From the IMG/VR virus record IMGVR_UViG_3300028822_000042, positions 1-64,000 of that record: a stretch of DNA of 64,000 bases; one strand, 5' to 3'. Each line of letters opens with the position of its first letter. Within the stretch, counting starts at the first letter, position 1. The notes below the pieces were generated by a model. The model had not been told where the DNA came from. It searched no databases and was given only the letters and a program-made list of their open reading frames with translations. This document shows, one piece after another, positions 30,156 through 49,747 of the stretch. The position numbers and the translations under genes are program-made. This DNA comes from a virus.

Positions 30156-30175
30156 TTAATGTCATGTCTATCCTA

Positions 30176-30205: not shown

Positions 30206-30225
30206 CTCTCCCCTTAGGAGTCATA

Positions 30226-31158: not shown

Positions 31159-32051
31159 TGGCTATTAGAGACGAATATAACAATCTTGTTGGTAGCAAAT
31201 TCTCTGGAGAGAGAGTTTACGAATATGATTGGTTTTCTGGGTCTCAGATTAACATTATGTTAGGTGATGTTGTTATTGATAGTGCTGTAGGTATTTCCTT
31301 TAATATCCAACAGACAAAAACACCTGTTTATGGATATGCTAGTCAGTATTACAAGTTTGTGACTAACGGACATGTTCTTGTGCAGGGCAACTTGACCATT
31401 GCTTTTAAAGAAACAGGATACCTTATGTATCCTATTCAGAGGCTCTTAAACAATCAGGTCAATACAAAGAATCTTGACTATTCTGACTTGGCTAAACAAG
31501 AATTCTCTAGTTCTCCTAAATACTCAATGGAGAATGGTGAATTTCAGAGAGGTTATAAGAGTTCCACTAATAGTCTTACAGAAGCAGCTGATGCAGCTAG
31601 AAGAAAACGCACTATGAAGGCTAATGTGGAACAGATGTTTGAGTGGGAAGCTCGTGGCGGAGATCCTAAATTACAGAGAAGATACAACAAATTCTGGAGA
31701 GGGCTTTCAAGTCTTCCCGATGATAAGTTTGAAGACTGGGCAGAAACTTTTGAAGATGCAGTTTGGTTCGGATCAGATAGTAGCAATCCTGTAGTTAGAG
31801 ATAAATTTTTTAGCAACAATATTGATGACACAACTAGTCTTGCAGATGAAGATGTTTTGATGCATCGGCGTTTAGATCAATATCCAGAAATTGATATTAT
31901 TATCTCTTATGGAGATCAATCCATACATTCAGCAAATCACACCGTCAAGAAGATACTTGATGTCAATTTTACTGGTCAGTCTCAAACAATAGAAATTTCT
32001 GGCCAGCCTGTGTATGAACAGTACAGCTTCATTGCTAGAAATCTAGTTTAA
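31158..32051 (+). CDS. Tube-like paralogue/baseplate hub component
   Basis: WFSGSQI, ISFNIQQTKTPVYGY, GHVLVQGNLTI, EQYSFIAR. Confidence 0.65.
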   Translation: MAIRDEYNNLVGSKFSGERVYEYDWFSGSQINIMLGDVVIDSAVGISFNIQQTKTPVYGYASQYYKFVTNGHVLVQGNLTIAFKETGYLMYPIQRLLNNQVNTKNLDYSDLAKQEFSSSPKYSMENGEFQRGYKSSTNSLTEAADAARRKRTMKANVEQMFEWEARGGDPKLQRRYNKFWRGLSSLPDDKFEDWAETFEDAVWFGSDSSNPVVRDKFFSNNIDDTTSLADEDVLMHRRLDQYPEIDIIISYGDQSIHSANHTVKKILDVNFTGQSQTIEISGQPVYEQYSFIARNLV

Positions 32052-32133: not shown

Positions 32134-32775
32134 ATGACTAAAGGCAAAAAACTATCAAATGAAGAAGCTCAGATGCTTGCAGAAGCAGAGAAGGCAGCAA
32201 AGGCAGGTTTTGACCAAAAAACAAAGCAGTTAAATGAAGAAATATATGGATCAATAACAACAAAGTTTGATCCTACAGTAGAAATGAAAGATAAAGCTTC
32301 TATGGAAAATGATTCTACAGTAGAGACCTCTTCTCATAGACCTGAAGAAGACCCATCTTTAGAGGGGGAAGAGCCTGGAGATACAGTCCCTGAAGATCCT
32401 GAAGAGAGGATGAAATGGACTGCCAAGATGCTGCAGAAGGTAAACCCTAAAGCACCTGGATACAATGCTCTTAGGCAGTGGAAACAGATGCATGGGGATA
32501 TCTTCATTCTAAATATACAAGATAAAGTCTTTATCTATCGGTATATTAAGAGACAAGAATGGGCACAACTTCAATCGAGTGATAGTTTCAACAACATGAA
32601 TCCTGTTCAACAGGAAGATCATATTACAGAACGTTGTGTTCTTTGGCCAGAAATGAATCCTATGGTTAAGGCATCTATGCCTGCAGGTGCATTGAGTATG
32701 CTTGCAGAACAGATCAGAATTCAGAGTATGTTCTTAGATCCTGTACAAGTGGCCAATATCACATTGAAGCTCTAA
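32134..32775 (+). CDS. Tail assembly chaperone 1
   Basis: Position after the tube genes; WKQMHGDIF...FIYRYIKRQEW...CVLWP...PAG. Confidence 0.6.
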   Translation: MTKGKKLSNEEAQMLAEAEKAAKAGFDQKTKQLNEEIYGSITTKFDPTVEMKDKASMENDSTVETSSHRPEEDPSLEGEEPGDTVPEDPEERMKWTAKMLQKVNPKAPGYNALRQWKQMHGDIFILNIQDKVFIYRYIKRQEWAQLQSSDSFNNMNPVQQEDHITERCVLWPEMNPMVKASMPAGALSMLAEQIRIQSMFLDPVQVANITLKL

Positions 32776-33467
32776 TGACTTCTCTCCATCATGCATTAGA
32801 TGCAATAAGAAAGGCAGATGATGCCTTATATGCTGTTCCGTTTCCTGATGGTACAGAGATAGTTTTTCGTCTGCCTTCTTATAGAAAAGCTCTACAGTAT
32901 TCTGAGCTTATATCTATTAGCAAAGAAGACTCTCAACTTTCTTCTCATATCTACAACTATATATTTAAATCTGTATGTCAGGATAAATTTCTGGCAAATG
33001 ATAGCGACATGCTTCCAGCAGGTGTCCCTGAGACGGTTGCTAAATTAGTCCTACTCTTCTCTGGTGTAGATGAATCTTCATTAGACTATACAGAGACTCT
33101 TCTTAACTCATATAGATCTAGAGTTAATAATGTCATCTGTACAATGAAGAGGTGTATCTGCAAAGTGTTTTCTGGGTATAAGTATCATGAGCTAGATAGT
33201 CTTAACTATCAGCAACTTATTGAAGTATTTGTTCAAGCAGAGAAAGTTTTACAAGATGAAGGTATAATATCTGAAGAGGGTCTTGTTATTCAAAGACCTG
33301 AAGATAGTAAACAAAAAGATCTTGATGTTGGACAAATGATCAATAAGGACATTAAGGAATACAATCAATTTGAACATGGTGGTTCTTCAGGACAATCCCT
33401 GTATGACAGCCCAGAATATAAATCTAGACTAGAACAAGAGAAGATGAGAAGGATGAGACAGTCTTAG
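32775..33467 (+). CDS. Tail assembly chaperone 2 (paralogue of chaperone 1)
   Basis: IVFRLPS...LPAGVPETVAKLV..SG parallels FIYRYIK...MPAGALSMLAEQI..S; TAATG coupling. Confidence 0.55.
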   Translation: MTSLHHALDAIRKADDALYAVPFPDGTEIVFRLPSYRKALQYSELISISKEDSQLSSHIYNYIFKSVCQDKFLANDSDMLPAGVPETVAKLVLLFSGVDESSLDYTETLLNSYRSRVNNVICTMKRCICKVFSGYKYHELDSLNYQQLIEVFVQAEKVLQDEGIISEEGLVIQRPEDSKQKDLDVGQMINKDIKEYNQFEHGGSSGQSLYDSPEYKSRLEQEKMRRMRQS

Positions 33468-33480: not shown

Positions 33481-36400
33481 TTGGTCAAAAAAATTCTTGC
33501 AGAAGGGGAACAACCAGGTTTACCTGGTGAAGGGTTCCAAGATAATTCTGGTTCTTTAACAGCTCTTGCATTTGGCGCTGGAGGTCTTGCCGCTACTGGA
33601 TTTATTCCTGTTGGCAAAGGTCGGATGTGGGATAAGTATCTCTCTGGAATTAGAAGTGTAGAAACTGCTTTTCCCGGCGCAATACTAAGAACATTTAGGA
33701 CATCTGAGTTCCTCTCTCCTCTTGAGAGCTGGTCCAAGCTTGGTCTTGCTGAAGCTGAGCTTAAGGGTGCTGGAGTATATTCAGATTACCTTAAGACTAC
33801 TTTTGGCCAGGGCATAAAGGCACTAGATGTTACTAGAACTGGATCTGTATTTGGTGAAGTCAGAGACGAGGCTGGAAGACTTGTTGGTATGGCAGCCCAG
33901 ATGGAGGCTGGTACTCTCAAGGGTTCTGCTATCTCTGACTACTATGCTCGTGTTCAAGGATTAAATCTTACTCAGTATGATTCTTTAAATGAATCTTTGC
34001 TCAGAGCCAAGTGGAAAGCTGCTAAGAGTACTCTTCCTTATAATGAATGGGTAAAGACTCTTGAGCCTCATCTGCGTAGAGAACGTATAATACTTGGGGC
34101 TAAGATTAGAAACAAAGCCAATCTCATGGGGCTTAATCTTGAACTCTCTGAGAGGATGGCTCGCAATGTAGCTAAAGCAGAAATAGCAGGAAATATCCTT
34201 AGAGCTAAGGCAGCATCTACTGCCGGTAGACTAAACAATCTACTTACAAAACCATTAGAAGTTCCTGTTCTTGGTGATGTTCTAGAGAAAATACCTGGCC
34301 TGCGTAGTATGGCCGTTCGTCCTGGCACCAACTTACAGATACTTGGAAGGCTTACTGCCAAAGGTGCTGTAGCTGGTGCTGCTTGGAAGGGTTTAGATTA
34401 TGTAGACTATCTTCGTTCTGAAGGGTCTATATGGGCTGCTCCACTGTCTGTAGCTGGTGGGGCTGCAGCTGGTGCTTTTATAGCTAGAAGACCTGGTATG
34501 AAATTCTCTAAAGGAGGATTGATTGCCGGTGCAGCTCTTGGTCTGTTTACTTCCATATCTCCTAGATTTAGTGAAGGCATATTCTATGGTGCAGCATCTA
34601 CTACTGCAGATATAAATCTTGCTAGATCAGAATTGTCTAGTACCGTTGGGATCACAGAGTCTCTTCAAGAACAAGAGGAAGTAACTTCTGGTCTTGTAAC
34701 TCCTCAAGCTGCATTAGCATTTGGTGGTATTGGTGCTTTAGGTGTTGGATTCGCTGACTATTTTTCCTTTCTTGGTCGCGCAAGTAAAGAGAAGTTGGCT
34801 ACTAAAGAACCGTTCTTTAAAGTTCTTGAACGATTCAGAGAGAGAGAGGGCAACTTAGTATCTAATTTGTGGGAGTCTTCTCTTGGTAAGAAAATAGCTA
34901 AAACTCCTATTCTAAAACATCTTACTAAGATTAAGAGTGCAGCAGGACTTGGCTTTGTTGCTGGCCTTGCTGCATGGCAAGGAATTACATCTGGTCTTTC
35001 TCTCCTTGCTGGCAATCCATTGGCAGCTATACCTGGTGTTCCTTTTATAGGAACCACAGAAACTCCTGAAGAGCTTAGTGCTGTTTATTCAGGTGAGAAA
35101 GATGTAGCTGTACGTAAAGGCAGATGGTGGGAGTTTGGTAGATCAACTGGTTACGAAGGTGGACGTATAGAATACTATCGTCCGCACTTTCTACATAGAT
35201 TAAGAACTAGAGCGTATCAGAAAGGACTGTATGGTTCAGAAGAGGAGAAATGGGAATACGACCCCATGATAAATCCTCTTAAAGCTCTTTTCGGCTCGGA
35301 TGAGTGGAAATACCACTATGAGAAAAAACATCAGTATGATAGACCTGCTCCTCTTACAGGCACATATGGAGAAGATATTCCGTTCATAGGGCCTCTAGTT
35401 GCAGCTACATTTGGTAAGCTCTTCAAGCCTCGTAAGAAAGTACGTCCAGAAGAATGGAATCTTGGTGGTGGTGAATATGTAGATATTACTGACCCTAGAG
35501 GAGAGACAGAACCTGCATATGGTCTTGGTGGTTTAGGTCCCGGTGCACCTGTTGCTCCAGAAGAAGGCAGCCAACTATTAAACCAACTTAACTATAGGAG
35601 ACGTGAAGCTGTAGGTCTTGTAGGTTTCCTTGAGGGAGCCCTTACTAAGAGAGCTATTGGTAGAGAAGAATTTTTTCAGAACAAAAGAACCCTAGAAGGA
35701 ATGGGAGAAGAGACAGGTTCTGAATACTGGTTATGGAAACATCTTAATCTTGGCGGTGGGTTAGGCACTACAGAAGCAGTTAGACGTTTTATTCCTAGAA
35801 CTCCTAGCTATCTAGAGACATATAATCCTCTAAAGAATGCTCTTCCTTCTTGGATGCCAGATGACTACTTTCTAGATCTAAAGCATGGTAACCCCTTCAA
35901 GAAGATACCTGAAGCAGAGATAAGACTTCCTGGTGAAGGCTATGCCACCCTACATCCAGAAGTTGAAGGTCTATCTCCTGAAGAATATCCATTAGCACAT
36001 AGAGTTAAGATCCTTGGCGATGTAGCTATGTGGTCTAATGAATATAAAAGCACAATTAGATATGCCAAGTCTAGATTAGATCAATTCTCTCCTGAAGAAG
36101 CTCAGATGATTCAGGAGACAGAGGAACAAGTAAGAGCCAAGAAGGAGAGAAGAGAGTTTTCTCCCTATATATTTGGTGGCGACCAACTAGAAGAGATGGA
36201 TGTAACTGTCTCTGAAGTCTTAAGTCCTAGACATATTAAGACTAAAGAGATGGGAGATATGATTCTTGAGATTCAAGGTATTGGTGCAGTTAAGAATACA
36301 AAGGAAGCCTTAAACTTTGTTCAGCAGTCTCTTGAAGGCAGCAAGGTATCTGTCCATACACCTAAACTAGAACCTAGAAGATACAGCTCTATAACTAGAG

Positions 36401-37662
36401 GTCCTAGAATGAAGGTAGTTCCTATGGTTGAGGGACAGCCTATTAGTTCTTTAATGGCAGAGGAAGGTATTTCTGAAGCGAGGCCACTAGAAGATGAGTT
36501 CAAACAATTACAATTTTCAACGGCAGAACGTCTTGCAGGTAGATTAGGTGAATATGTCACTCATGGAATAGAGACTCCGCTTGAATATCTAACTCCTGTA
36601 TCTCCAGCATCAAAACTTATTCGTAAGAGATCTCCAGTTGAAGAATATGTTGCTACAGAAGCTATAGGAACTGGAGCCTCATTCTGGGATAGGCCTGTAG
36701 AGAATTTTCTAAAGCCTGCTTATAACATGGCTAAATACAAAGCAGGTATAGTTGATGTCCCTGAAAACGTAGAAGAAAGACGAGATATTCAAGAATACTT
36801 CGATATGCTGAAGTGGGTTAAAATGTCTCGTCTTGAGAAGAAAGCTCGACAAATAGGTGATGATACAGCTGCTGCTGAATATAGCAAAGCTAAATCCTCT
36901 ACTGTATTTGGTGTAGATGTCTTTAAGAGTCCTGTAAATATTATGAGGGCTCTTCCTCGTCGAGAGAGAGATTTCTTTGGCGAATTTGTTGACGCAAGAA
37001 CAGAAGAAGAGAGAGCACAAATCCTTCAACTCATACCTGAGAACGAGAGAAGAATTTATCTTTCTCAATGGATGAGACAAGAAGAAAGAGCAGCCTATTC
37101 AAAGAGGAATGCAAAGATAGAGACAGAAGAGGACGATAAGATAATAAACATGACTGCTAGAATGAGAGCCTCTGAAGGTTTTTCTTATCCTGAAGGTGCA
37201 GAAGAACAATGGCTTAAAGAGACTGGCGGTCGAATAGAATTTGATGAGTGGATTAGAGAACGTAAAGCAGAAGAATACTTTGAGACTCACTCTCTCCCTG
37301 GAGCAGACTGGCTAGGTTGGCATCCATCAGTGGACCTTGAAGATGTTAAAATGCTCATGGTTGAGCAAGCAGGCCTTGACCACCATGACTTTGATCTCTG
37401 GGGACAGAGAAGAAGAGCCCTTGCACGTAAGCCATATATAGAACCATCTCTCCTTCAAGGTATGACTGAAAGAGCTGAATATGAAGATTCTTGGAAGGTT
37501 GCTGAGAATTCTAGAACTCTTACAAGAATGTTTAATGACCATCAAGCAGAAATATATGTTTCTCAGTTAGATACCCATGGAGATGACAATAAATATGATA
37601 TCCAGGTTAAGGATAGCCGCAGAGACCTTATTGAGAAAGCCTACAGACATCTAGGAGCTTAA
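33481..37662 (+). CDS. Tape-measure-like/ejected virion protein with hydrophobic Gly/Ala helices and a degenerate SNase-like domain
   Basis: 1393 aa right after the chaperones; several TM-like Ala/Gly segments; SNase-like pattern near 36196-36480 lacking catalytic Asp residues; TTG start with AGGAGG SD. Confidence 0.6.
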   Translation: MVKKILAEGEQPGLPGEGFQDNSGSLTALAFGAGGLAATGFIPVGKGRMWDKYLSGIRSVETAFPGAILRTFRTSEFLSPLESWSKLGLAEAELKGAGVYSDYLKTTFGQGIKALDVTRTGSVFGEVRDEAGRLVGMAAQMEAGTLKGSAISDYYARVQGLNLTQYDSLNESLLRAKWKAAKSTLPYNEWVKTLEPHLRRERIILGAKIRNKANLMGLNLELSERMARNVAKAEIAGNILRAKAASTAGRLNNLLTKPLEVPVLGDVLEKIPGLRSMAVRPGTNLQILGRLTAKGAVAGAAWKGLDYVDYLRSEGSIWAAPLSVAGGAAAGAFIARRPGMKFSKGGLIAGAALGLFTSISPRFSEGIFYGAASTTADINLARSELSSTVGITESLQEQEEVTSGLVTPQAALAFGGIGALGVGFADYFSFLGRASKEKLATKEPFFKVLERFREREGNLVSNLWESSLGKKIAKTPILKHLTKIKSAAGLGFVAGLAAWQGITSGLSLLAGNPLAAIPGVPFIGTTETPEELSAVYSGEKDVAVRKGRWWEFGRSTGYEGGRIEYYRPHFLHRLRTRAYQKGLYGSEEEKWEYDPMINPLKALFGSDEWKYHYEKKHQYDRPAPLTGTYGEDIPFIGPLVAATFGKLFKPRKKVRPEEWNLGGGEYVDITDPRGETEPAYGLGGLGPGAPVAPEEGSQLLNQLNYRRREAVGLVGFLEGALTKRAIGREEFFQNKRTLEGMGEETGSEYWLWKHLNLGGGLGTTEAVRRFIPRTPSYLETYNPLKNALPSWMPDDYFLDLKHGNPFKKIPEAEIRLPGEGYATLHPEVEGLSPEEYPLAHRVKILGDVAMWSNEYKSTIRYAKSRLDQFSPEEAQMIQETEEQVRAKKERREFSPYIFGGDQLEEMDVTVSEVLSPRHIKTKEMGDMILEIQGIGAVKNTKEALNFVQQSLEGSKVSVHTPKLEPRRYSSITRGPRMKVVPMVEGQPISSLMAEEGISEARPLEDEFKQLQFSTAERLAGRLGEYVTHGIETPLEYLTPVSPASKLIRKRSPVEEYVATEAIGTGASFWDRPVENFLKPAYNMAKYKAGIVDVPENVEERRDIQEYFDMLKWVKMSRLEKKARQIGDDTAAAEYSKAKSSTVFGVDVFKSPVNIMRALPRRERDFFGEFVDARTEEERAQILQLIPENERRIYLSQWMRQEERAAYSKRNAKIETEEDDKIINMTARMRASEGFSYPEGAEEQWLKETGGRIEFDEWIRERKAEEYFETHSLPGADWLGWHPSVDLEDVKMLMVEQAGLDHHDFDLWGQRRRALARKPYIEPSLLQGMTERAEYEDSWKVAENSRTLTRMFNDHQAEIYVSQLDTHGDDNKYDIQVKDSRRDLIEKAYRHLGA

Positions 37663-37663: not shown

Positions 37664-40600
37664 ATGTTTGGACAAGATGAACGATCACCTCTATGGGGTT
37701 TAGCTGCTGGCGGAAGTCTTATTGGCGGTGCCGCATATGCTTTTAGTAAAAACAAATCAGCATTTGCTGATGTTCTTAAATCTAATCTAGATGTGGCCTC
37801 TTCAGTGGGGTCTAGAATTGCTGATGCTCCTGGCTTTGTTACAGTTAGAAATATGCCTTCAGCAGTAGGTTCTGTTAGTAGTGAATTGTCTTCACTAGTT
37901 CAGGATCTACCTAAGAGCACAATACGAGACATAGAACAACTTACATACAGATCTATCATGGCAGGCAAAACAGCAACCCATGAAGAAGCATTGTCAGCTT
38001 TGTCTGTAGTTAGAAAACAGGGATCTCCTCTAGAAGCATATGAAGCAGCAGTTGAGAAAGCTGGAGCATTAGGCGGAGACATAGGAGAGATAGAAAGAGG
38101 AATGAAAGGAATTGGAAGTGTTCCTTCAGAATCTATAGTTAGACGTGCAGGAGTTTCTGAGGGAGGATTTGGTTTTGGCTTTCAATATGAGAAATTTGCT
38201 GATCTTAGTGAAGATGCCCAATCCAGATATACAAGACTTAAAAGCAACCTTGAGTCAGCAGCTGGCAGAAAAATAGATATTAGAGTTAAGAACATAAGTG
38301 ATATTATTGACAATGAGGTTGTAACTACTCCTATGGCTACAGCAGAAATTGCAGGAGAGTCATTTAATATTCCACTTGCTGATACAAAATATACTTATGG
38401 AGGCAAAGGATATACTGCTAGATACGCAACTAGAGGGGCCTATACTGCTACTGGCCATAAGATGACTTATTCTCAACTTGCTGAACAGACACTTATAGAT
38501 GCTTTGTCTGGCGCACAATCTCATAGAGAAGTTAAGCAAAATTTACTTCAAGCACATCAAACACTGATAGATCAAATGAACTCTAGAGATTCAGATGCTA
38601 GAGCAGCAGCAGTATGGACTCTTCCTGAGCCTGTTGCTCCTTCTGGATCTAAAGCTAGAACACGTATACTTGCACAAGAGGCAATTGCATCAGGCAAGAT
38701 TACAGAGGAAGAAGTAATTAATCTTTTAGGACATGGCTTCTATGGATACACAAGTCCCTCTGCTGCAGCAAAGGGAACATTAGCTACTCAAAATCTAGCA
38801 ACTGGTCTCTATGGTCCTCTTGGGGCTTTTATGAGTGCAGAGCAGAAACCTACTCAATTCATTAGAGGAGAATGGGGTGTTACAGGAGAAGCTAAAAGAA
38901 GAGCTAAAGCTTTTAAAGGTGCATTCGGACAAGCATACTCTCGTTTAGATAGAAAGATGAAGGGAGAACTATATGACCCTCTAATATATGGTAAAGGAGT
39001 TAATCCCCTATCTGCAGAAGCTTACTCCTCTCCTCAATTACTTACATTTTATGCAAAGCCTGCTGCAAAGAAAGAATATGGTATTGGCTATAAGTCAGGA
39101 GCTCTTAATGAACTTCTTTCAGCAGAAGAAGGAGTTATATCTAAATCTGTTACCGGACAGATGGAACATGAAAGAGTAATTCAGAAGAAGATTGCTCTTG
39201 ATGAAGGTTTTAGAGTTAACAAACAAATCTCAGAACAACTTAAAGATGTACCTCCAGGTTCTGGAGTTTCTCCTGTATTCTTAGGCGAAAATCAGTTTGT
39301 TGGAATAGAGAAAGGCACAGGTAAAGAAATAATAACTAGTAGAGGAGATGCTATTGAAAATGTTGTTGGTGCTGAGATTACTGGGCCTAATGAGGCTAAT
39401 GTTTTTATAAGAGAACGTAGAAGATTGTCAGAAGATGAATATTGGAAGTTCTTCTCAGAAGAGAACAAATTTATGGCTTCTGCTGCTTCTGAAGAGAAGA
39501 TGAGAAAGACTATTAAAGCAGCTGGGGTAGGAGACCTCAGAAAAATAGCTGGTCAGGAAATAGAAGCTGTGTTCTCCGGTAAGCTTGTTGGCAGAAACAA
39601 AATGGCACTTCTAAACCAGCAGATAGAAGCAGCAAGTATGTTTCTTGGTAGAAAGATAGATAGAGGAACAATTGCTTCTCCTGCGGCGCAAGAATTCTTA
39701 GCTGACCCTATAAAAGCTCTCAATGTAAAAAGTCTTATGGCTTCAAGTGCAGCAGATGCTGATTTTCAAATACAGAAGAACTTGGTTGGCTTAACAAGAA
39801 AGTGGGGCTTCTCTGGATTTGAAACACAGTTAACATTTGGTCTTACTGATCTTGATGTAGCAGCTAAGCTTGAGAAACAGACAAACTTTAGAGGCTTTTC
39901 TAGATTAGTTGAGAGAGCACCTGGTGTAGTCGGTCTTGGCAAAATGAAGCTTGGCGATAGAGCAGCTGAAGGTGGAGCTGGAAGAATAGGATCATTTGAA
40001 ACTACAGGTTTTAGAGCCTTGGCGATGAAAGGCGAAACAGGAGAAAGCTTTGCTGCTGAACTAAGAAATAGACTTCTTGGTAAAGGTGATATTACAGAAT
40101 CAGACAGAATGTTTGCCTCTGTTATTGGAGAACAAGGCTTCTTTGATAAGTTTAAACGTAGAGGTTTAGAAAATTTAACAGATATAGATCCTGAAGAACT
40201 GTTTGTTCCTGAAGGTAGAGAAGTTAGTCTTGGTCGGAGGATGAAAGAACTAGGAGGATCCTCTTCTTTATATGTCCCAGGTCTTGAGACATCTCCTGAT
40301 ATAATGGCTCCGTCTATCGTTAAAGGTGAAAGAGTACAGTCTCCAGCCGCTAAAAGCATAATGTCTTTCCAAGGCTCTCTTAGTAAACATGTCGCCGGTA
40401 AAATAGGAGATGAAGAACTTGAGGCTGCAGCTGCCACTCTCAGAACTAATCTAGCTAGAGTCTCAGAGCAGCAAGCATTTGCTAAGAGTAAAGTACTTGG
40501 CTCTAGAGTTCTTACAGGCATCAGAGGAAACTTTGCCAAGGATAGAGATACTTTTAGAATATCTAAATCTGCAGCAGAAGGAATGTTTGATGAGCTTATT

Positions 40601-42049
40601 GACAGAGCTGAATCAGGCGAACAAGTAGATTTCCTTAAGCAACAGAGAAAAGCAGCCATGGAAGAACAGGTTCTTACTGGAGGAATGTGGAGACACCCCA
40701 CTACAGGACCTGAGTCATTTCAGTTCGTAAAATACAAAGTAGATAAAGATCTAGCTGATGGGATGCTAGCTGCTCCTAAAGAATATGGGAAGCTTCATAT
40801 AGAAGGCAAGACTAGACCTGTAGATGTTTCTGCTATGGTTGGGTTTAAAGGTGACTTTGACAGAGATCAATTCGTTATATCTGCAATAGCCGATAGAGAT
40901 AACTCTAATAGAATAGCTAAACAGATAGATCATGGCATGAAAGAACAGTATAACAGATATGTGTTTAATCATTATGCTATGAAAGATTCCATCGAAGGCA
41001 GACTAGGCAAAAGTTCTGTCCTTGATATGACTTCAAAAGAAGCCCTTGAGATGGGATACAAACAACACACAACAGCAAAGACCTCAACTGGTAAAGTTAA
41101 TCTAGCTTTACAAAAACTAAAGATTGGTGTTTCAGCTGCAGCTCCTGAAAAGTATAGACCTTTAGCTGAAATGTTCTGGCATTTAGAAGAAGCGGCTATC
41201 AGTGGCAAGCATGGTGTACTAGAATCAGAACTTTATCAGGCAATTGCTAGTTCGGTTAATAAAGGTGGAGAACGGGGAATTAGAGATATGGAGGCTGTAA
41301 TAAAAAGTCTCATGGGAGAAGCAAGAACAATAAGAGGTGAAATAACTGATTCTTTTGGTAATAGGATTACTCAACAGATTGATTATAATCCAAGACAATG
41401 GGCTGAGACAGCTGTCGGTTCGTTAGATGCTGTTAGAGACGATGTTAATGCTGTTATGCGTTCGGCTTCATTTGCTAAAGGAAATGTAGACGCAAATATA
41501 AAACAGCTTACTGAACAATTCCATGCTAGAAGATCTGGTTCTGTTGATATAGCTCAAAGCCTTATGCAAGGAACAAGTGATGAGTTTACAACTAAAACAT
41601 CAAGAGCAATGAGACGAGGAGCTGTAAGAGCTAAAGGATTTATGTCTGCAGTTAAGAAAGGTTCTAAACCTCTTATGGTTGGAGCTGCAGCTGCTGCAGG
41701 TATTATGCTTATGTCACCTAGCACATCAGGTGTACTTAGAAAACCTGAAGGCTCTGCTGGCGGACGTAATATGCCACCAGAAGACTATGGTCCACCTAAT
41801 GGCGGTCCAATACAACCACCACCACCAGGACCAAATAGATCTCCTAGAACCTATGACATAGGTAGCGGAAACAGAACATCTCATGCTAATATTAGAATGC
41901 GTATTAACGATTTAGATTCTTCATCTAGAGACTTTATGGCTAGTGCTCGTGCCCTATCAGATGGTTCTGGAGTTAGAATTAATGCTAAAGATGACAGAAG
42001 TATCTTAGATCCTAGATTACTCGCTAGTAAGATCCATGAGAGGCTATAG
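37664..42049 (+). CDS. Putative single-chain two-barrel (DPBB) RNA polymerase-like virion protein
   Basis: Beta'-like MWRHPT (R1010) and VGFKGDFDRDQ (D1064/D1066/D1068). Beta-like SAEEGVISKS and VFIRERRRLSEDEYWKFFSEENK (K595, K602). Confidence 0.7.
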   Translation: MFGQDERSPLWGLAAGGSLIGGAAYAFSKNKSAFADVLKSNLDVASSVGSRIADAPGFVTVRNMPSAVGSVSSELSSLVQDLPKSTIRDIEQLTYRSIMAGKTATHEEALSALSVVRKQGSPLEAYEAAVEKAGALGGDIGEIERGMKGIGSVPSESIVRRAGVSEGGFGFGFQYEKFADLSEDAQSRYTRLKSNLESAAGRKIDIRVKNISDIIDNEVVTTPMATAEIAGESFNIPLADTKYTYGGKGYTARYATRGAYTATGHKMTYSQLAEQTLIDALSGAQSHREVKQNLLQAHQTLIDQMNSRDSDARAAAVWTLPEPVAPSGSKARTRILAQEAIASGKITEEEVINLLGHGFYGYTSPSAAAKGTLATQNLATGLYGPLGAFMSAEQKPTQFIRGEWGVTGEAKRRAKAFKGAFGQAYSRLDRKMKGELYDPLIYGKGVNPLSAEAYSSPQLLTFYAKPAAKKEYGIGYKSGALNELLSAEEGVISKSVTGQMEHERVIQKKIALDEGFRVNKQISEQLKDVPPGSGVSPVFLGENQFVGIEKGTGKEIITSRGDAIENVVGAEITGPNEANVFIRERRRLSEDEYWKFFSEENKFMASAASEEKMRKTIKAAGVGDLRKIAGQEIEAVFSGKLVGRNKMALLNQQIEAASMFLGRKIDRGTIASPAAQEFLADPIKALNVKSLMASSAADADFQIQKNLVGLTRKWGFSGFETQLTFGLTDLDVAAKLEKQTNFRGFSRLVERAPGVVGLGKMKLGDRAAEGGAGRIGSFETTGFRALAMKGETGESFAAELRNRLLGKGDITESDRMFASVIGEQGFFDKFKRRGLENLTDIDPEELFVPEGREVSLGRRMKELGGSSSLYVPGLETSPDIMAPSIVKGERVQSPAAKSIMSFQGSLSKHVAGKIGDEELEAAAATLRTNLARVSEQQAFAKSKVLGSRVLTGIRGNFAKDRDTFRISKSAAEGMFDELIDRAESGEQVDFLKQQRKAAMEEQVLTGGMWRHPTTGPESFQFVKYKVDKDLADGMLAAPKEYGKLHIEGKTRPVDVSAMVGFKGDFDRDQFVISAIADRDNSNRIAKQIDHGMKEQYNRYVFNHYAMKDSIEGRLGKSSVLDMTSKEALEMGYKQHTTAKTSTGKVNLALQKLKIGVSAAAPEKYRPLAEMFWHLEEAAISGKHGVLESELYQAIASSVNKGGERGIRDMEAVIKSLMGEARTIRGEITDSFGNRITQQIDYNPRQWAETAVGSLDAVRDDVNAVMRSASFAKGNVDANIKQLTEQFHARRSGSVDIAQSLMQGTSDEFTTKTSRAMRRGAVRAKGFMSAVKKGSKPLMVGAAAAAGIMLMSPSTSGVLRKPEGSAGGRNMPPEDYGPPNGGPIQPPPPGPNRSPRTYDIGSGNRTSHANIRMRINDLDSSSRDFMASARALSDGSGVRINAKDDRSILDPRLLASKIHERL

Positions 42050-42052: not shown

Positions 42053-45000
42053 ATGACAAAGAAGAAAAAACCAACTCGTGAAGAGCACCTAAAGTATATG
42101 AAGACAGACACTTCATCTATACTTGGTAAGTTAGGTTCTTTTCCTGTACGTAGGTTACATCAAGAAAGAGACTATTCTACCTCTCCTCGCACATCACTTA
42201 GATATATATCATCTACGATTGAGAGAAGTCGTCCTTCATTTGATAAAGCAAGAACAACTGGATTTGATTATAATCCAGGTTATGTAATTCCTTCAGACAT
42301 TGAGTTAAATACAGGTTTTAGTGACGAAAGAGAACTTCAGTTAGAGAACGACTTTGCTGAACCTATTAGCAGTGAATCTATTGAAGGCGGAACAAATAGA
42401 CCTGATCTACTAGAGCAAGAAATAGAAGAAGCTATTTCTAAAGATACTAAGCTAGCTACAAAATTTTCTTTTAATACTTTTTCAGATGATTTTCTCATCA
42501 TAAATGATGTCTTTCTCTATAACGTTCCTACAGCAAGTATCTCAATTCGGTCACAAACTGATGTTTTTGTTGGTGAGACACTTAGAACTAGAGCACCTGT
42601 AATCTCTACAGAAGGTCGACAAGATTTCATTTTGAATTTAAGTTTAGTCTTTAATCCTGGTAGAGAACAAACAGAAGATTTACGTAGACTTATATCTGAA
42701 CTATCAAGACATCCTCTTGTCTTTATCTTCAATAACAAAGTTAGAAAGTCAATTGGTGTTGGTGAATTCGACACCACAATGTTTATTCTTGAAGCGGGTA
42801 CACTTAGAAGCTCATCTGAATCTGTAGGTGCTGTAGTACTAGATTTACAGATGCACTATTTCAATCATAAACCTTTCAGCAATAACTTCTTCTTCAACGC
42901 GAAGATGCCCGGTATTTCATATTCTTCTGAGATTGAAGACTCAAAGGCAAGAGAGCCACTTAGTTTAGATAGTCTTGAAGGATATGAGTCGTCTGATTAT
43001 ATTCTTGACCAAAAAGCACAAGATATAAGAGAAAGAATAAGAAAGAGTGTTACTCAAGTTGCAGATTCTAAGACAAGAAATATTCCTGTAAACTTTCCTT
43101 CAGAGTCTGATTCTTGGAAGTATTATGCAGATCATCTTACTGATTTGACTCCTATCATCTCTGAGAAGCCATCAGACTATATGAGCTTTTCTGTTAAGGT
43201 CTTCGAAGTAAAAGACCCTCCTAAAGAAGCAAAACAAGGACTTGGTACGATTCAGGGCGCCTTAACAAGCACAGTTACTCGTCCTTCTGTCAAGTCTATG
43301 TATGATGCTACTAAGCCTCTTCCTGAATCCAAAACATACCAACAGAAAGAGGTAGAGGCTACGTATGATTCTAATGTACAGCCATCTGCTCTTGAAGGCA
43401 CACCTATTGATTTTTATAGTTATGACTCTGGCAGGTCTGACAGTATTATACTTACTGCTTCTCCTGGTGTTGTTCATAGTGATGCCTCAAGTAGACTTTC
43501 TGATTTAATTAATGTTGGGAAGGATGAAGGCGCCCCTGCAATTCAACCTGGATTAATTCTACATATGCAAAAAGTAGCTAATAGATTTCCAGGTAGAAAA
43601 ATTTTAGTTAATTCAGGTTCCAGGTTTCCTAAAAACCCAGAGAAATTCTATTCTAAACCAGTAGAGAGAAGAAGTAGACATGCTACTGGAAACGCCATGG
43701 ACTTTAAGGTTCAAGGCGTATCAAATAGAGAACTTTTTAAGTTCTTAAGAACTCTTCCTAATTGTGGATCAGGATACTATCCTAATTCTACATTCTGCCA
43801 TGCTGATTATAGATCTAGAAAGGATTATTGGGTTGATATTTCTGGCCCGGGAGAAAAATCACATTATCTTAGAGGCCAAGACAGAGCAGATTACCTTAGA
43901 CAACATGTCTATGATGGGTCTGCACAATCAGACAATGTAGAGGCAGAAGCCGACAAGAGAAGTCGTCAGGCTAAATCAAAACCTCATGAGCAACGTAAAG
44001 ATGCTGCCGCTCCTAAATCAAGTGAATACGCTAAACAAGAAGAAGAATTATACAAGAAACAAACAAAACAAGATCCTTCTATTGGACATAAAGTAAACGA
44101 CCCAGTAAAGAGGTCGTGGCAGGCTAGAGCTGATTGGATAGAAAAACTCTATAGAGAAGGAGGTTGGATCTATTATTCAGGAGAAGATAATAAGATAAGA
44201 AATGTATTCTATAAGGAGTACTCTGTAGAAATCTCTTCTGGTATAGATTCAAATAGAGATCCTGACATTCTTAGAAATATTGTTTGTTCTGCAATCTCAA
44301 TTCAGTTTGGTCATAGAATTGCTCCTATGAGATTGCTTAGTCAACATACATACACTTATCAATTTCTTGGCGCTGGTAATAAATCTGGACAAATGGTTTT
44401 TACTTTCTCTGGCAAGAAAGGTCGTGAGTCTGCAGATGCTCTGAAGAGACTAATTATTTTTGCTAGAGATAATGCAAGAAATTTTGGAGGTGTAATCAAA
44501 GAAGCAGGAACTATATATATAAATGGCCTCAACTACAATAATGGAGACACTAATACAATTCTGTCTCTGCTTAATATAGAGAATATCATTATTACAGATA
44601 TTAAGGAGTCTTCTCTTCCGGACTCTGTAGATAAACACCAACTTGTACTTGAGTTTATTATTCAGGATTTTCAAGAAGAGACTTTTGAAAAACTATTTGT
44701 TGAATCTGTTGAGAATAGAAGAAGAATAATAAAACAAATATTTAAGTATCTTACTAGAAACAAATATGGTGTGGTTCCTGTCCCTTCAGTGGCCACCTAT
44801 GATCCATCTCAATATAGACCGTATGTTTTAAACAAGGAGACTCCTTCTTGGGTTTCAAGTATTATTAGCAGAGCGGCTACTATAACTAGAAATATAGAGA
44901 AGCAGATGCCTCCTCTTGACTGGAAGTTAGAGCCTAGATCTTCAAGAACATGGAGAGACATATATGCAGAGTGGGGAGCTGATAAAGTAATAAAGGGAGA

Positions 45001-48000
45001 CTATTCAAATGTCTCTTCTTCAGACTTCAATGCTTCTTCTTTAACTGTAGGTAGAAGTGTGTCTTTGTCTGCAGTTCAAGACCTAACAGAAAGACGCAAG
45101 TTCGAGAGTAATGGAGGATCAGAAACCAACAATACTCATAATGATCTATATAGAGAATGGCTATCACAGATGACCAACCTCACTAAAGAGGTCAAGAAGT
45201 ATATAGAAGACGAGAAGAACTTTGAAAAGTACTTTGGTTCTCTTGGTGATGATTTATTAGATGCTGTTACTCAGACTATGGGTGAGTGCTATGGAGATAT
45301 GCTTCTTCCTAATCTTCCACATGCTAACATTCCCGTACCTCCAGAATTCTATGTCTATGACGACTCAGATGAAAGCCCTATCTTATCCAATATTACAGAC
45401 CCTGCTAATATGGAGAAGTTTTTAAAAGAACATATTAGGAATGAAGTTCAATCTATATCTTTGTACATGAGAGAACGTTGGCTTGGTGGATCATACTTAG
45501 CAAAGAATCTTCCTCGTATATTAGAAAATAGGAAATATTACGATAGACAGATGCAAGGAGAGTTTGATTTTATAGATAATTTTTGGAAGATATATCAAGA
45601 AGGAGCAACAGCTTGGGAACCAATAACATATAAAGAGGACCCTTCTATTGATAACAATTCTCAAGTTAAGAAGTGGAAAGAATTTACTTATGCTGGTATA
45701 GGAGCCACTAATCCTGAAGACGCTAGATTTAAATACATGGAAAGTCTTGTTGGCTTAAGTCAATATCTTAATAAAGGTAGACATTGGCAAACAAGTTATA
45801 CTGAACAAGATAACCGTAACCTAGTGACAAATATATATGGCGACCTGTATGATAAGACATCTTTTGGTCCCAATCCACAATATAACAAAGCAGATGCTGC
45901 ATCTAATGGCAAAGCTCTTCCAGAACGAACACTAACTCAGATACAAGCGATAACAAACCAAGCGTATTCTAAAGTAGCTAAAGACAATAATGTAGCTATT
46001 CCTATTGGTTCTGATAGAACCGCGTTACCAAACGGTGATATTGTTATAGGAGACACGAAAGAAGAAAGATTAGCTGAAGAATACTCAACAAGTGTTGCTA
46101 TGATTAATGCAGCTAAAGAGAGTGTCGATAGGATGAAGAGACGCTCTCAGAATAGCTTATTGGGGTATATCGGTAGTGTTGGTGGTCTTGCTCTTGTCTC
46201 TATGCTTGATTTTACTGACACCTATGATGTTGATGCTTCTGATTTAATATATAGAGGAAATGCTGATGCTGTAAATAGAGCTAGCGCAGCACAGCATATA
46301 TCTAATGTAATTAAAACTTTAGATCATAATATTAAAGAAAACGTAGATGAAACCAACCAAGAAGACAAGATGGCATCTATGTTTGCTGGGATGGCTATTG
46401 GCTCTAAGGCAGATGATCTTAGCATTCGAAGAGCATATCCAACATTTAAAATATATTTTATTGAAGAAGACGCTCAAGATAGCGAAATGATAGATGGGAA
46501 GGTCGTCAGAGCATTTGATGACTTTTACAGTTATTCAGCTATTCAAGAAATAAAGATAACTAGGTCTCGCAAAATAGCTTCTGATCTTGCTGTTATAAGA
46601 ATGACTAATGTTGGTGGTCTTCTTCTAAGACGTAGATTTGGAGATAGAGATCCTAGACAAAATAGTACTGGTGAAATGCAAGGTGTTTTTGCAGATACCG
46701 CTAAAGAGCATCCATTTGAGAAGATGGTTCTTCAAGATGGAGTAAAGGTTCAAATCAGACTTGGTTATGCCTCAGACCCAAGTAATCTAGAGTCAGTATT
46801 TCTTGGTCAGATAGTTGAGATAGCGCCTTCAGAACATGGCAAAATCTTAGAAATAATGTGTCAGGGATATGGAGCTGAACTTGAATCTATTGAACTTGGC
46901 GAGCTAGAGGATGGACCTATATATACTAGCACTCAACAAGCTCTGTCTTCTGCTATCATTCAAGATAGCGTGTCTACATTTGGTAGACAAAGTAATTTTA
47001 ATAGATTCAATCCTGCAGAAATAAGACATGCTTGGACAGGAGGTACTGGAGATAGTATTCTTGGAAAAATAAATCCTGCTACTGCTGTCAGAGATTGGGC
47101 AGACCATAATATGGATAAACACTTCCAGAAGTACACCTTCTTGAATTTTCCTCAAGATGATAATATTTTTGCTCCTCCTCCTTCTGCTTATGCCTCAGCA
47201 TGGATGAGGTTTTATAACAATGCCTGTATCTACAGACCTTTAAAACAAACTCCATGGCAAATATTCAAAGAACATGAACTTAGACATCCTGGATATATTT
47301 CTATGGCTGTACCATATGGACATTCACCTAGAATGACAATGTTCTTTGGTTCAAAGATGCAGCACTATTGGTCTAAACCTCCTTCATCTTTAGAACTATT
47401 TGCGTCTGAGAATGCATATAATGCTCTTGTTAGAATGAGAGGCAAAGTTGCTTCAGGCGATTTTAAGTCTTTACAAGGTTTAATTAGTCGACTGACTAAA
47501 GAGTCAGGAGAAAAGCCTAAGCTTATATCTGCGATGCTTAGAGATATTGCTTTGTCTGGTGCTCCTACAAGAACATCTCAAGCAATTGCTAAAGAGACAG
47601 GAAGATATAAACCATTTAGAAACTATCATTACTTTGATAGCTATCACCATATTTTAAAAAATGAAATTCGTACTTCTACAGATGGAACATTTAATGAAGT
47701 AGAAATACTATTCTTTACTGATGAAGATGATATTCAAGAACAATATGCAGAAGATCTAATAAAAAGCATTCAAAGTCTTGGATCAAAACAGGAAGGTGTA
47801 TTTTCTGTTAAGCTAGATGAAAATATACTTGAAAGTTCACTAAGGTCTTACAGAGAAGAATTTCCGTCATGTGTCACTGTAGATATGGCAAGAAGGTATG
47901 CTCAGGGTATTTTTGCAAGACACCTTAGAGACGCCTATAAAGGAGAGCTTATTGTTCTTGGCAAAGAAACACTAAAGCCATATGATATTTGTTATCTCAA

Positions 48001-48508
48001 TGATGCAAGTATCAATATGACAGGGCCTATAGAAGTTGAAGCTGTCACTCATGTCTTTAATAGAGATAATGGATTTATTTCAATAATAACTCCTGACTTA
48101 TGTGTTGACGTAAATGATATGTTTAGTACTACTGTATTTGATGTAGCTGCTGCTGGATATAGTTCGGTATGGAGCTGGAATGATGCTTTAAACCCACCAG
48201 CGGCTATTCTTAGTTCTATTGCTGGGTTTCTTGCTATGTCTGCTGGTGTTAAACTATCAATGTGGACGCAAGATGGCGATCCTGTAGTTCCAACACCTCT
48301 AACACTTGGCGGTAAGCCTTTTATGAGTGTATCGCTTGGGCCAAATCAATCTTCATTGTTCTTGAACTTCTATGGCAAATGGGTTCAATATTGGGATGAT
48401 CTTGAAGATGCTTGGCATAAATTTGATATTGCAGAAGAAATCTTTGATAAGAGAGTTGGCTTTAGGACTAAGATTCTATCTATGTTGGGAACAGGAACAG
48501 GAGAGTAA
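42053..48508 (+). CDS. Giant baseplate hub protein with an inserted peptidase M15 (peptidoglycan hydrolase) domain
   Basis: VNSGSR...SRHATGNAMD (H543-x6-D550)...GYYPNSTFCHAD (H583). Hub-like QIRLGY...VFLGQIVEI...CQGYGAEL and YKGELIVLG...LKPYD...VEAVTHVF. Confidence 0.75.
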   Translation: MTKKKKPTREEHLKYMKTDTSSILGKLGSFPVRRLHQERDYSTSPRTSLRYISSTIERSRPSFDKARTTGFDYNPGYVIPSDIELNTGFSDERELQLENDFAEPISSESIEGGTNRPDLLEQEIEEAISKDTKLATKFSFNTFSDDFLIINDVFLYNVPTASISIRSQTDVFVGETLRTRAPVISTEGRQDFILNLSLVFNPGREQTEDLRRLISELSRHPLVFIFNNKVRKSIGVGEFDTTMFILEAGTLRSSSESVGAVVLDLQMHYFNHKPFSNNFFFNAKMPGISYSSEIEDSKAREPLSLDSLEGYESSDYILDQKAQDIRERIRKSVTQVADSKTRNIPVNFPSESDSWKYYADHLTDLTPIISEKPSDYMSFSVKVFEVKDPPKEAKQGLGTIQGALTSTVTRPSVKSMYDATKPLPESKTYQQKEVEATYDSNVQPSALEGTPIDFYSYDSGRSDSIILTASPGVVHSDASSRLSDLINVGKDEGAPAIQPGLILHMQKVANRFPGRKILVNSGSRFPKNPEKFYSKPVERRSRHATGNAMDFKVQGVSNRELFKFLRTLPNCGSGYYPNSTFCHADYRSRKDYWVDISGPGEKSHYLRGQDRADYLRQHVYDGSAQSDNVEAEADKRSRQAKSKPHEQRKDAAAPKSSEYAKQEEELYKKQTKQDPSIGHKVNDPVKRSWQARADWIEKLYREGGWIYYSGEDNKIRNVFYKEYSVEISSGIDSNRDPDILRNIVCSAISIQFGHRIAPMRLLSQHTYTYQFLGAGNKSGQMVFTFSGKKGRESADALKRLIIFARDNARNFGGVIKEAGTIYINGLNYNNGDTNTILSLLNIENIIITDIKESSLPDSVDKHQLVLEFIIQDFQEETFEKLFVESVENRRRIIKQIFKYLTRNKYGVVPVPSVATYDPSQYRPYVLNKETPSWVSSIISRAATITRNIEKQMPPLDWKLEPRSSRTWRDIYAEWGADKVIKGDYSNVSSSDFNASSLTVGRSVSLSAVQDLTERRKFESNGGSETNNTHNDLYREWLSQMTNLTKEVKKYIEDEKNFEKYFGSLGDDLLDAVTQTMGECYGDMLLPNLPHANIPVPPEFYVYDDSDESPILSNITDPANMEKFLKEHIRNEVQSISLYMRERWLGGSYLAKNLPRILENRKYYDRQMQGEFDFIDNFWKIYQEGATAWEPITYKEDPSIDNNSQVKKWKEFTYAGIGATNPEDARFKYMESLVGLSQYLNKGRHWQTSYTEQDNRNLVTNIYGDLYDKTSFGPNPQYNKADAASNGKALPERTLTQIQAITNQAYSKVAKDNNVAIPIGSDRTALPNGDIVIGDTKEERLAEEYSTSVAMINAAKESVDRMKRRSQNSLLGYIGSVGGLALVSMLDFTDTYDVDASDLIYRGNADAVNRASAAQHISNVIKTLDHNIKENVDETNQEDKMASMFAGMAIGSKADDLSIRRAYPTFKIYFIEEDAQDSEMIDGKVVRAFDDFYSYSAIQEIKITRSRKIASDLAVIRMTNVGGLLLRRRFGDRDPRQNSTGEMQGVFADTAKEHPFEKMVLQDGVKVQIRLGYASDPSNLESVFLGQIVEIAPSEHGKILEIMCQGYGAELESIELGELEDGPIYTSTQQALSSAIIQDSVSTFGRQSNFNRFNPAEIRHAWTGGTGDSILGKINPATAVRDWADHNMDKHFQKYTFLNFPQDDNIFAPPPSAYASAWMRFYNNACIYRPLKQTPWQIFKEHELRHPGYISMAVPYGHSPRMTMFFGSKMQHYWSKPPSSLELFASENAYNALVRMRGKVASGDFKSLQGLISRLTKESGEKPKLISAMLRDIALSGAPTRTSQAIAKETGRYKPFRNYHYFDSYHHILKNEIRTSTDGTFNEVEILFFTDEDDIQEQYAEDLIKSIQSLGSKQEGVFSVKLDENILESSLRSYREEFPSCVTVDMARRYAQGIFARHLRDAYKGELIVLGKETLKPYDICYLNDASINMTGPIEVEAVTHVFNRDNGFISIITPDLCVDVNDMFSTTVFDVAAAGYSSVWSWNDALNPPAAILSSIAGFLAMSAGVKLSMWTQDGDPVVPTPLTLGGKPFMSVSLGPNQSSLFLNFYGKWVQYWDDLEDAWHKFDIAEEIFDKRVGFRTKILSMLGTGTGE

Positions 48509-49296: not shown

Positions 49297-49737
49297 ATGG
49301 CTAAAATATATGACAATACTGATTTAACATGGACTTCTCGTGGAGATTTTGTTGTAGGACATGATGGTGATATCTCAGATACTTCTGCCGACCCACTAAG
49401 GTCTATATATCAGGAGATTCGCACAAGGGTTATGTCTGGTATTGGAGATTGGGCCTTCTATCAAGACGTAGGTGCCTCATTGTCCGACTTTGTTGGCGAG
49501 CCTAATAACAAAGTTACTGCTGAAGCCATTAAAACTAGAATTATTTCATCTGTGGCTAGACATGGTCTGGTTGCTAGAGAAGATATATCTATTAGATACA
49601 TGCCTGTAGATATAGATCAGATCTTATTTCGTGTTTCTTTGAGTGTTATGCCTACAGCTCAGAATGCTGGCAGTGCTTATTTGCAAATCAATCTTCTCTA
49701 CAATTACGCTGAGAATAACGTTTATACTGTCATATAG
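49297..49737 (+). CDS. Baseplate wedge protein, T4 gp25/P2 gpW-like
   Basis: QEIRTRVMSGIGDWAFYQDVGASLSDFVGEPN pattern; size; position before J. Confidence 0.8.
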   Translation: MAKIYDNTDLTWTSRGDFVVGHDGDISDTSADPLRSIYQEIRTRVMSGIGDWAFYQDVGASLSDFVGEPNNKVTAEAIKTRIISSVARHGLVAREDISIRYMPVDIDQILFRVSLSVMPTAQNAGSAYLQINLLYNYAENNVYTVI

Positions 49738-49747
49738 GAGCTGATCT

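Follow-up and report, generated by a model that had tools for sequence, protein, structure and literature searches.

Which protein fills the tape-measure slot in the tail operon of the virus recorded as IMGVR_UViG_3300028822_000042 in IMG/VR, and what might it do there? The window, i.e., the whole stretch of 64,000 nucleotides analysed here (positions 1 to 64,000 of that record), holds three giant consecutive open reading frames (ORFs) on the + strand, called G1, G2, and G3. The gene under study is G2, which an ORF check of the window found to be open over 37664-42049 (+), with a product of 1461 residues. From the letters alone, an earlier sequence-only reading had proposed that G2 encodes a cryptic RNA polymerase (RNAP) with both catalytic barrels in one chain. 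The results strongly support the view that G2 is a very diverged single-chain relative of cellular RNA polymerase with its active site intact; furthermore, with a probability of roughly 0.6, it is an active two-barrel enzyme carried in the particle, injected, and starting phage transcription.

The structure of G2 residues 401-1360 was predicted with AlphaFold2 from an alignment of 89 sequences and without templates (model residues are numbered from 1 at the start of this segment), giving a mean predicted local distance difference test score (pLDDT) of 92.2 and a predicted template-modelling score (pTM) of 0.89. A Foldseek search of the PDB with this core model returned 52 matches at E ≤ 1e-3, and all 47 of those listed are RNA polymerase chains, of both the β′ and the β type. 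The largest RNAP subunits match model residues 423-916, the Rpb1 alignments reaching 904-916, and the second-largest subunits match model residues 1-373 (Foldseek values: African swine fever virus RPB2, 10.1; PhiKZ nvRNAP, 9.6; AR9, 9.1; Pol I A135, 9.1). Single-chain enzymes match both halves (QDE-1, 10.5; maize RDR2, 10.4; P74-26 gp62, 9.7; P23-45 gp96, 9.0 and 8.7). Two double-psi β-barrel (DPBB) domains, β-like and then β′-like, are thereby found in one G2 chain, the arrangement that defines the superfamily. The DxDxD loop lies inside a DPBB match at model residues 546-675; in the β′-like barrel RHP comes after a strand and the loop ahead of the last strand holds DFDRD, K595 and K602 are located on strands of the β-like barrel, and long helices occupy model residues 678-817, one of them bearing the nearly invariant E1175 and K1182. 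The sequence-only reading had anticipated a predicted structure with two DPBBs resembling RNAP β/β′ and QDE-1, and the high-confidence model bears this out, with gp96 as a further match.

A search of BFVD with the core model gave an unnamed protein as the best match (1.4e-11), followed by A0A172Q021 of Acinetobacter phage vB_AbaM_ME3 (ME3; 2.8e-9 and 1.5e-5 for its two halves, which together are as long as ME3 gp36, encoded in the G2 slot). Further matches are an uncultured siphovirus protein named "minor tail protein" (3.6e-7), Microcystis phage proteins, and the crAss-like proteins cr50_1 (E 6.6e-4) and cr118_1 (3.1e-3). Residues 172-1310 of G2 are predicted as compact α/β structure with a pLDDT of 85-92, and the non-polymerase parts are limited to residues 1-170 and 1311-1461. 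For the N-terminal 470 residues the model has a pLDDT of 85.4 and a single BFVD match at E ≤ 1e-3, an uncharacterised phage protein. Along the window, G2 is laid out as follows.

37688..37750 (+): N-terminal Gly/Ala-rich hydrophobic helix, residues 9-29; low pLDDT, kept in the family consensus
37880..38146 (+): small helical bundle, residues 73-161; no informative fold match
38177..38863 (+): segment for which the evidence is below the noise level stated by the search tool
39038..39583 (+): β-like barrel DPBB-B, residues ~459-640; holds AEEGVIS (486-495) and K595/K602 (nucleotides 39446-39469)
39584..40498 (+): inter-barrel connector, residues 641-945, ~305 residues; mainly helical, with small sheets
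40499..40933 (+): β′-like barrel DPBB-A, residues 946-1090; R1010-H-P1012 (nucleotides 40691-40699) and D1064-F-D1066-R-D1068 (nucleotides 40853-40867)
40934..41593 (+): long-helix region, residues 1091-1310; nearly invariant HLEEAAIxGKHG with E1175/K1182 (nucleotides 41180-41215)
41660..41737 (+): C-terminal basic stretch and Gly/Ala-rich hydrophobic segment, residues 1333-1358
41738..41863 (+): Pro/Gly-rich low-complexity linker, residues 1359-1400
41864..42046 (+): conserved C-terminal module of ~60 residues (ANIRMR...DDRSxLDP...KIHERL), resembling the last ~60 residues of phage 0305phi8-36 gp146

By position the connector would correspond to the clamp-forming connector of the gp96, QDE-1, and gp66-type single-chain RNAPs, and by analogy it may act as a clamp; the helices of residues 1091-1310 are a candidate equivalent of the bridge helix and trigger loop. 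The hydrophobic Gly/Ala ends pointed out by the sequence-only reading lie at residues ~9-29 and 1333-1358, and both are kept in the family consensus.

The short motifs on which the earlier proposal had been built are each present once in G2 and at the positions it gave: MWRHPT at residues 1008-1013 (nucleotides 40685-40702), DFDRD at residues 1064-1068 (nucleotides 40853-40867) within VGFKGDFDRDQ (nucleotides 40838-40870), SAEEGVISKS at residues 486-495, and VFIRERRRLSEDEYWKFFSEENK at residues 580-602, which includes K595 and K602. The last two, said to lie about 470-580 residues upstream in the manner of the β subunit, start and end 462-578 residues ahead of D1064. By chance, ~0.18 DxDxD motifs are expected in a protein with the length and Asp content of G2; a lone DxDxD is therefore unremarkable, and conservation and fold serve as the test. 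In a collection of 5.8 billion proteins, 30 relatives of G2 were found at 35-68% identity, 29 of them with 1438-1509 residues and one with 1142; an exhaustive search of representatives at 50% identity gave 70 proteins at E ≤ 1e-3, of which 35 reach E ≤ 1e-30, with lengths of 1430-1570 residues in nearly all cases. The named relatives carry solely the label "hypothetical protein", in line with the expectation that automated annotation would pass the protein over as hypothetical or as a tape measure.

Conservation was counted in the 89-sequence alignment, the denominators being the sequences with a residue in the given column. D1064, D1066, and D1068 are each present in 84/84, R1010 in 83/83, P1012 in 82/83, K595 in 77/77, and K602 in 70/77; the residues Q652 (78/78), E1175 (86/87), and K1182 (85/87) are conserved to a similar degree. 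Among 32 diverse full-length members, whose identity to G2 is 16-41%, just 16 of the 1461 columns are invariant: P237, G547, G553, K595, K602, Q652, G726, P872, G946, R1010, P1012, D1064, D1066, D1068, E1175, and K1182. All six residues that had been named as the catalytic set (K595, K602, R1010, and the Asp triad) are among them, and the Asp triad, whose conservation in homologues had been singled out as a check, holds in both comparisons in every relative with a residue at these positions. With both halves matching RNAPs and the Asp triad, the RxP motif, and the Lys pair as the most conserved residues of the family, the single-chain two-barrel assignment stands. One detail of the earlier proposal did not survive: the DFDRD loop had been called unusual, and position 1067 varies among 84 relatives (R 25, K 18, G 11, D 8, A 8, N 5), so that this loop is not special. 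As a side observation, an antisense ORF of 311 residues runs within G2 (window 39766-40701, − strand); it is almost certainly spurious, because the + strand product has full-length homologues conserved down to 16% identity.

It might be argued that G2 is not a polymerase at all, i.e., that chance motifs and a misleading model conspire, since a lone DxDxD is to be met 0.18 times per protein of this size and sequence methods give no link to RNAPs. Pfam has no match for G2 and none in 32/32 family members at E ≤ 1, and PHROGs has none for G2; the best phmmer hit of G2 in the PDB has an E value of 0.33, and the best hit of a PDB profile search (0.15) falls on an Ala run. In the ESM Atlas the best score was 0.77, under the level of a lead, and patterns of the close family gave 89 matches in 185,579 prokaryote genomes, 0 of which were confirmed. 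The RNA-dependent RNA polymerase (RdRP) family PF05183 matched neither G2, nor the 32 members (E ≤ 1), nor five related genomes; as a control, it found orf99 of phage 0305phi8-36 at 1.1e-20. Against these negatives, two independent structure searches agree on RNAPs for both halves, the high model confidence was reached from just 89 sequences and without templates, and residues named before any search prove invariant, which makes this explanation hardly credible.

The surroundings of G2 bear on the question of how the protein is used. The start codon of G2 lies 1 nucleotide past the stop of G1 and is preceded by AGGAG, and G3 starts 3 nucleotides past the stop of G2; the window carries the structural operon of a tailed phage, with portal, capsid, sheath, G1-G3, and wedges all on one strand.

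16630-18804: portal
22395-23654: major capsid protein
27568-29460 (+): tail sheath
29481-30155 (+): tail tube (o224); BLASTP to 0305phi8-36 gp140, 2e-36
30226-31158 (+): tube paralogue (o310); BLASTP to gp141
31158-32051 (+): gp142-like protein (o297)
32134-32775 (+): tail chaperonin-like protein (o213); BLASTP to gp143 / ME3_33
32775-33467 (+): ORF of 230 residues (o230)
33481-37662 (+): G1, 1393 residues; homologue of 0305phi8-36 gp145 (a virion protein by mass spectrometry) and ME3 gp35
42053-48508 (+): G3, 2151 residues; homologue of the baseplate hubs 0305phi8-36 gp147 and ME3 gp37, with Peptidase_M15 and lysin-like regions
49297-51010: baseplate wedge proteins

The same gene order (sheath, o224, o310, o297, o213, o230, G1, G2, G3, o142, o112, wedge, wedge) is kept at nine related IMG/VR loci, as far as each contig extends, and the order sheath, tube, chaperone, G1, G2, hub is found in 9/9 related contigs. 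The nearest cultured phages by sheath similarity are ME3 and Bacillus phage 0305phi8-36; by BLASTP, G1 corresponds to gp145 / ME3_35 and G3 to the baseplate hub gp147 / ME3_37. The sequence-only reading had placed G2 in the tape-measure slot between the tail chaperones and the hub, and the succession of chaperonin-like o213, o230, G1, G2, and hub-like G3 shows this to be right, the slot being that of orf146 in 0305phi8-36. In that phage the gene between gp145 and gp147 is orf146/gp146, the "hypothetical tape measure protein" of record EF583821, whose note states that gp146 was found in virions by mass spectrometry. The assignment of orf146 as tape measure was made from the tail length by Hardies et al. 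(PMC2147016), who reported solely the last 60 residues to be conserved with the BtI1/BwK1 counterpart. It is over these last ~60 residues alone that the G2-family profile aligns with gp146 (hhalign E 3.8e-4, probability 36%).

In addition to the slot, gp146 appears to share with G2 its C-terminal layout, with a Gly/Ala segment of hydrophobic character, a linker of low complexity, and the ~60-residue module with DDRS; unlike G2, it has 2537 residues (22624-30237 of the 0305phi8-36 sequence, L013) and neither RxP[TSAG] nor DxDxD, and its genome contains the separate RdRP-family gene orf99. The slot proteins of three other cultured phages come closer. ME3 gp36 features KFFSVGSK at 632 (K632/K639 kept) and REP...DHDQD at 1217, and hhalign places the Lys-pair barrel of the G2-family profile on it (E 3.9e-4, probability 35%). 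A search of the ME3 genome with that profile gave no match, and BLASTP gave none for this pair either. Bacillus phage KLEB27-3 gp034 (2434 residues, "structural protein") carries RYPT...DYDGD, and Bacillus phage WH1 gp095 (2515 residues, "virion structural protein") carries RYPT...DHDGD, both in the same slot. These three proteins resemble G2 in slot, RxP...DxDxD signature, and C-terminal layout, and differ from it in belonging to distinct sequence families of 1603-2515 residues; they are annotated as hypothetical or structural, and in the records and literature searched they are not described as polymerases. By eye, G2, ME3 gp36, gp146, KLEB27-3 gp034, and WH1 gp095 have a common C-terminal layout, in which a basic stretch is followed by a hydrophobic segment rich in Gly/Ala, then by a linker of low complexity, and last by a small module at the terminus. 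G2 has compact domains, and its family length is mostly 1438-1509 residues, in place of the extended helical tape with a length-setting chain. G2 occupies the tape-measure slot by position and probably also by evolutionary descent, and is not tape-like itself.

The neighbour G1 deserves a brief comment. It was ruled out as a paralogue of G2 (BLASTP E ≥ 15), and its N-terminal third contains hydrophobic segments rich in Gly/Ala, located within the first ~530 residues. Its homologues among the relatives vary from 1379 to 2618 residues and contain 0-3 inteins by Pfam Intein_splicing/LAGLIDADG (L010:2124-9977, L002:4630-9987, L009:5310-9974). Inteins usually occupy highly conserved functional sites, and G1 may for this reason be more than structural.

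Could G2 be a structural tape-measure or ejection protein which retains an ancestral polymerase fold without catalysis? Its slot, the gp146-like C-terminal module, and the hydrophobic ends would fit such a role, as would the fact that in 0305phi8-36 the slot is filled by a protein without the signature. The conservation pattern speaks differently: down to 16% identity, no positions of the family are better conserved than the catalytic residues, and the Asp triad, R1010, P1012, and the Lys pair make up 7 of the 16 invariant columns. A scaffold without activity would have lost such residues, and it is thus very unlikely that G2 is one. The protein probably polymerises RNA on a DNA template.

If G2 is active, one may ask which other transcriptases the phage could use. 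Five related records were searched, one of them a complete genome of 197,730 bp that has terminal repeats and another 91% complete, and each contains exactly one G2 homologue. PF05183, PF00623 (Rpb1 domain 2), and Sigma70_r2 gave no match in the five. A six-frame scan of the complete relative for RxP...DxDxD found the G2 homologue alone, and other DxDxD-bearing ORFs of at least 400 residues in that genome lack the context. A Pfam scan of 10 of its long ORFs (9 outside the structural module and one with a weak terminase-ATPase match alone) revealed no polymerase for RNA; it gave a primase-helicase, ribonucleotide reductase (RNR), ThyX, a C-terminal piece of Pol III α, Ro60, a CCA-adding enzyme, and GT9. 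Since the complete relatives have no further recognisable RNA polymerase or sigma factor, G2 would be the only transcriptase of the phage's own. PF05183 has no match in ME3, KLEB27-3, and WH1 either; altogether it is absent from 8 signature-bearing genomes and present in 0305phi8-36, whose slot protein lacks the signature. In this small sample of related genomes, which is only suggestive, the separate RdRP-family polymerase of 0305phi8-36 may be a functional replacement. As an observation in its own right, the complete relative (G001, L015-L024) is rich in inteins, which occur in its class II RNR, ThyX, and the C-terminal piece of Pol III α, and it also encodes Ro60/TROVE, a CCA-adding-enzyme-like protein (PolyA_pol + HD), a Toprim-DnaB primase-helicase, and a GT9 glycosyltransferase.

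The inventory of these genomes also bears on the suggestion that the polymerase serves mainly in RNA-dependent RNA synthesis (as QDE-1 does), in replication priming, or as a motor pulling in the ~190-kb genome. Complete relatives encode their own primase-helicase, so that G2 need not act in priming; the related genomes searched show no other transcriptase, and the characterised phage members of the superfamily compared here are DNA-dependent transcriptases as far as the accessible text of the reports goes. Such roles are unlikely to be the principal ones. Another possibility is that G2 is an active two-barrel RNAP made in the cell for late or middle transcription and is no component of the virion. 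It would draw on the same evidence of fold and active site, virion presence is known in this slot only for gp146, which does not bear the motifs, and the folded core is too bulky for the tube lumen. On the other hand, G2 lies 1 nucleotide from G1 and 3 nucleotides from G3 inside a structural operon, its position is fixed in 9/9 relatives and in three cultured phages, and its hydrophobic ends and C-terminal module are apparently shared with a virion protein of the same slot verified by mass spectrometry; moreover, without packaging, a polymerase expressed only with the late genes would find little left to transcribe. A purely intracellular enzyme is hence judged a distinctly unlikely solution.

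For the favoured reading, a virion-borne enzyme that starts phage transcription, the following course of events can be envisaged. G2 would be co-transcribed and translationally coupled with the tail genes and built into the tail alongside G1 and the lysin-bearing hub G3. Contraction of the sheath would expel it into the cell envelope and the cytoplasm, where it would transcribe the first phage genes without the host polymerase, possibly held at the entry pore through its hydrophobic ends; such tethering was proposed for gp96 by Chaban et al. In the active site, the β-like barrel (residues ~459-640) would contribute Lys595 and Lys602, and the β′-like barrel (residues ~946-1090) the Mg-binding Asp1064, Asp1066, and Asp1068. 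Assembly into the tail, expulsion, and early transcription are suggested by the slot that G2 holds and by its terminal features, the hydrophobic ends and the C-terminal module.

Several observations weigh against this reading. No significant sequence link connects G2 to characterised RNAPs (Pfam 0/32; hhalign E 0.13 for gp96), and tblastn of four family members including G2 against 50,697 GenBank phage records found nothing. Convergence of K595 and K602 on the Asp triad is presumed and not shown. Presence in the virion is known only for gp146, a protein without the polymerase signature that shares at most the C-terminal ~60 residues (probability 36%). The G2 core is compact, comprising roughly 1100 residues with a structured connector of ~305 residues, unlike the flat, clamp-less gp96; folded, it is too big for the tail-tube lumen and would therefore have to be stored unfolded or elsewhere, such as in the hub or neck region. 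The search of the five records for T7-type polymerases (PF00940) is uninformative, its control having stayed silent. A crude test for phage promoters, i.e., repeated intergenic 9-mers in the complete relative, gave none: even the commonest are confined to 5 or fewer of the 97 intergenic regions, and GATTCGAAC, among the top two, resembles tRNA sequence. Finally, a second ME3 protein, A0A172Q0S6 (798 residues), matches the polymerase model with a Foldseek E of 1.4e-4 over 593 columns, and it could be a second, non-virion two-barrel polymerase of ME3.

Fold and slot can be joined in a broader scheme, which is offered tentatively and is less likely than not to hold. The slot RNAP would be the tape-measure orthologue across the lineage, stored at least partly unfolded in or under the tube together with G1 and G3 and fired through the envelope on contraction; its Gly/Ala ends would anchor it in the inner membrane, where it would transcribe the first genes and help to reel in the ~190-kb genome. 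0305phi8-36 would then be a derived case, in which catalysis was lost after the separate RdRP-family polymerase had taken over.

Three further genes in the window are recorded here for their own sake. The large terminase (10329-13397, +), recognised by a weak Terminase_6N match below the cut-off (E 0.0044, residues 503-681), is split by an intein that contains a homing endonuclease of the LAGLIDADG type (Intein_splicing 1.8e-15, LAGLIDADG_3 1.1e-14). Upstream of the packaging genes, a protein of 1446 residues (4310-8650, +) contains a staphylococcal-nuclease domain (4.3e-12), a protein-kinase-like region (APH/Pkinase/ABC1, residues ~1130-1205), and weak exonuclease-like matches. Between terminase and portal, a protein of 657 residues (14679-16652, +) shows a sub-threshold match to the Ocr DNA-mimic family (E 6.7e-4; 20.5 bits, the cut-off being 25).

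A single-chain RNAP invisible to sequence searches thus fills the tape-measure slot across a lineage of large myoviruses that is widespread (70 family representatives when clustered at 50%; complete genomes ~198 kb). What would follow if the favoured reading were true? The connection of tape measures with transcription would cease to be an isolated curiosity, the start of transcription without a recognisable polymerase or sigma factor would be explained, annotations such as "hypothetical", "structural", and "tape measure" would be corrected, and the mechanical question would arise of how a bulky polymerase passes a contractile tail. The idea is directly testable, because look-alikes occupy the same slot in the cultured phages ME3, WH1, and KLEB27-3.

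Virion-delivered two-barrel RNAPs are known experimentally from a small number of unrelated phages: from crAss-like podoviruses, from jumbo phages of the PhiKZ/AR9 type (multisubunit enzymes), and from siphovirus P23-45, where the polymerase is fused to the tape measure. Among cellular enzymes, Neurospora QDE-1 and plant RDR2 combine both barrels in a single chain; the G2 family has no match to PF05183, to which the 32/32 members and five genomes were compared, and G2 differs from both enzymes in its hydrophobic termini, its C-terminal module, and its setting in a phage tail operon. Gp66 of phi14:2, a phage of the crAss-like group (10.1101/2020.03.07.982082), is likewise a large single-chain two-barrel RNAP with DFDxD, packaged in the virion and transcribing early genes. 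Unlike G2, it belongs to a podovirus, is a capsid cargo, and has 2,180 residues; no sequence similarity to G2 was detected, and its structure 6VR4 is absent among the matches listed, by which similarity is not excluded. The BpSp proteomics (PMC4870245), in its accessible text, concerns a different, multisubunit type of polymerase, and a review of jumbo phages assigns DPBB RNAPs to group 1 phages, 0305phi8-36, and c-st, ME3 not being listed in its accessible text. No paper describing G2 was found in the literature searched, in which the P23-45 paper (PMC10770324) alone links a tape measure to a DPBB polymerase; its supplements could list the G2 family.

The closest characterised system is accordingly gp96 of Thermus phage P23-45 (PDB 8h2m/8h2n; PMC10770324). 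Over sequence the two proteins are not significantly similar (hhalign E 0.13 over 14 residues, covering the DFDxD loop only), and their organisation differs in several respects. While gp96 forms the N-terminal ~1100 residues of a siphovirus tape measure of 5,002 residues, G2 is a separate protein of 1461 residues in a myovirus; it has no tape domain and no covalent tape-measure fusion of the gp96 type, and the peptidase of its system resides on the next gene, G3, and not in the same chain as in the gp96-type fusion. The connector of gp96, a flat enzyme, has 67 residues and is disordered (PMC10770324), compared with the structured ~305 residues of G2. P23-45 also possesses a second, non-virion RNAP, whereas none was seen in the G2 relatives searched. 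What G2 and gp96 have in common is the fold, the DFDxD loop, and the locus.

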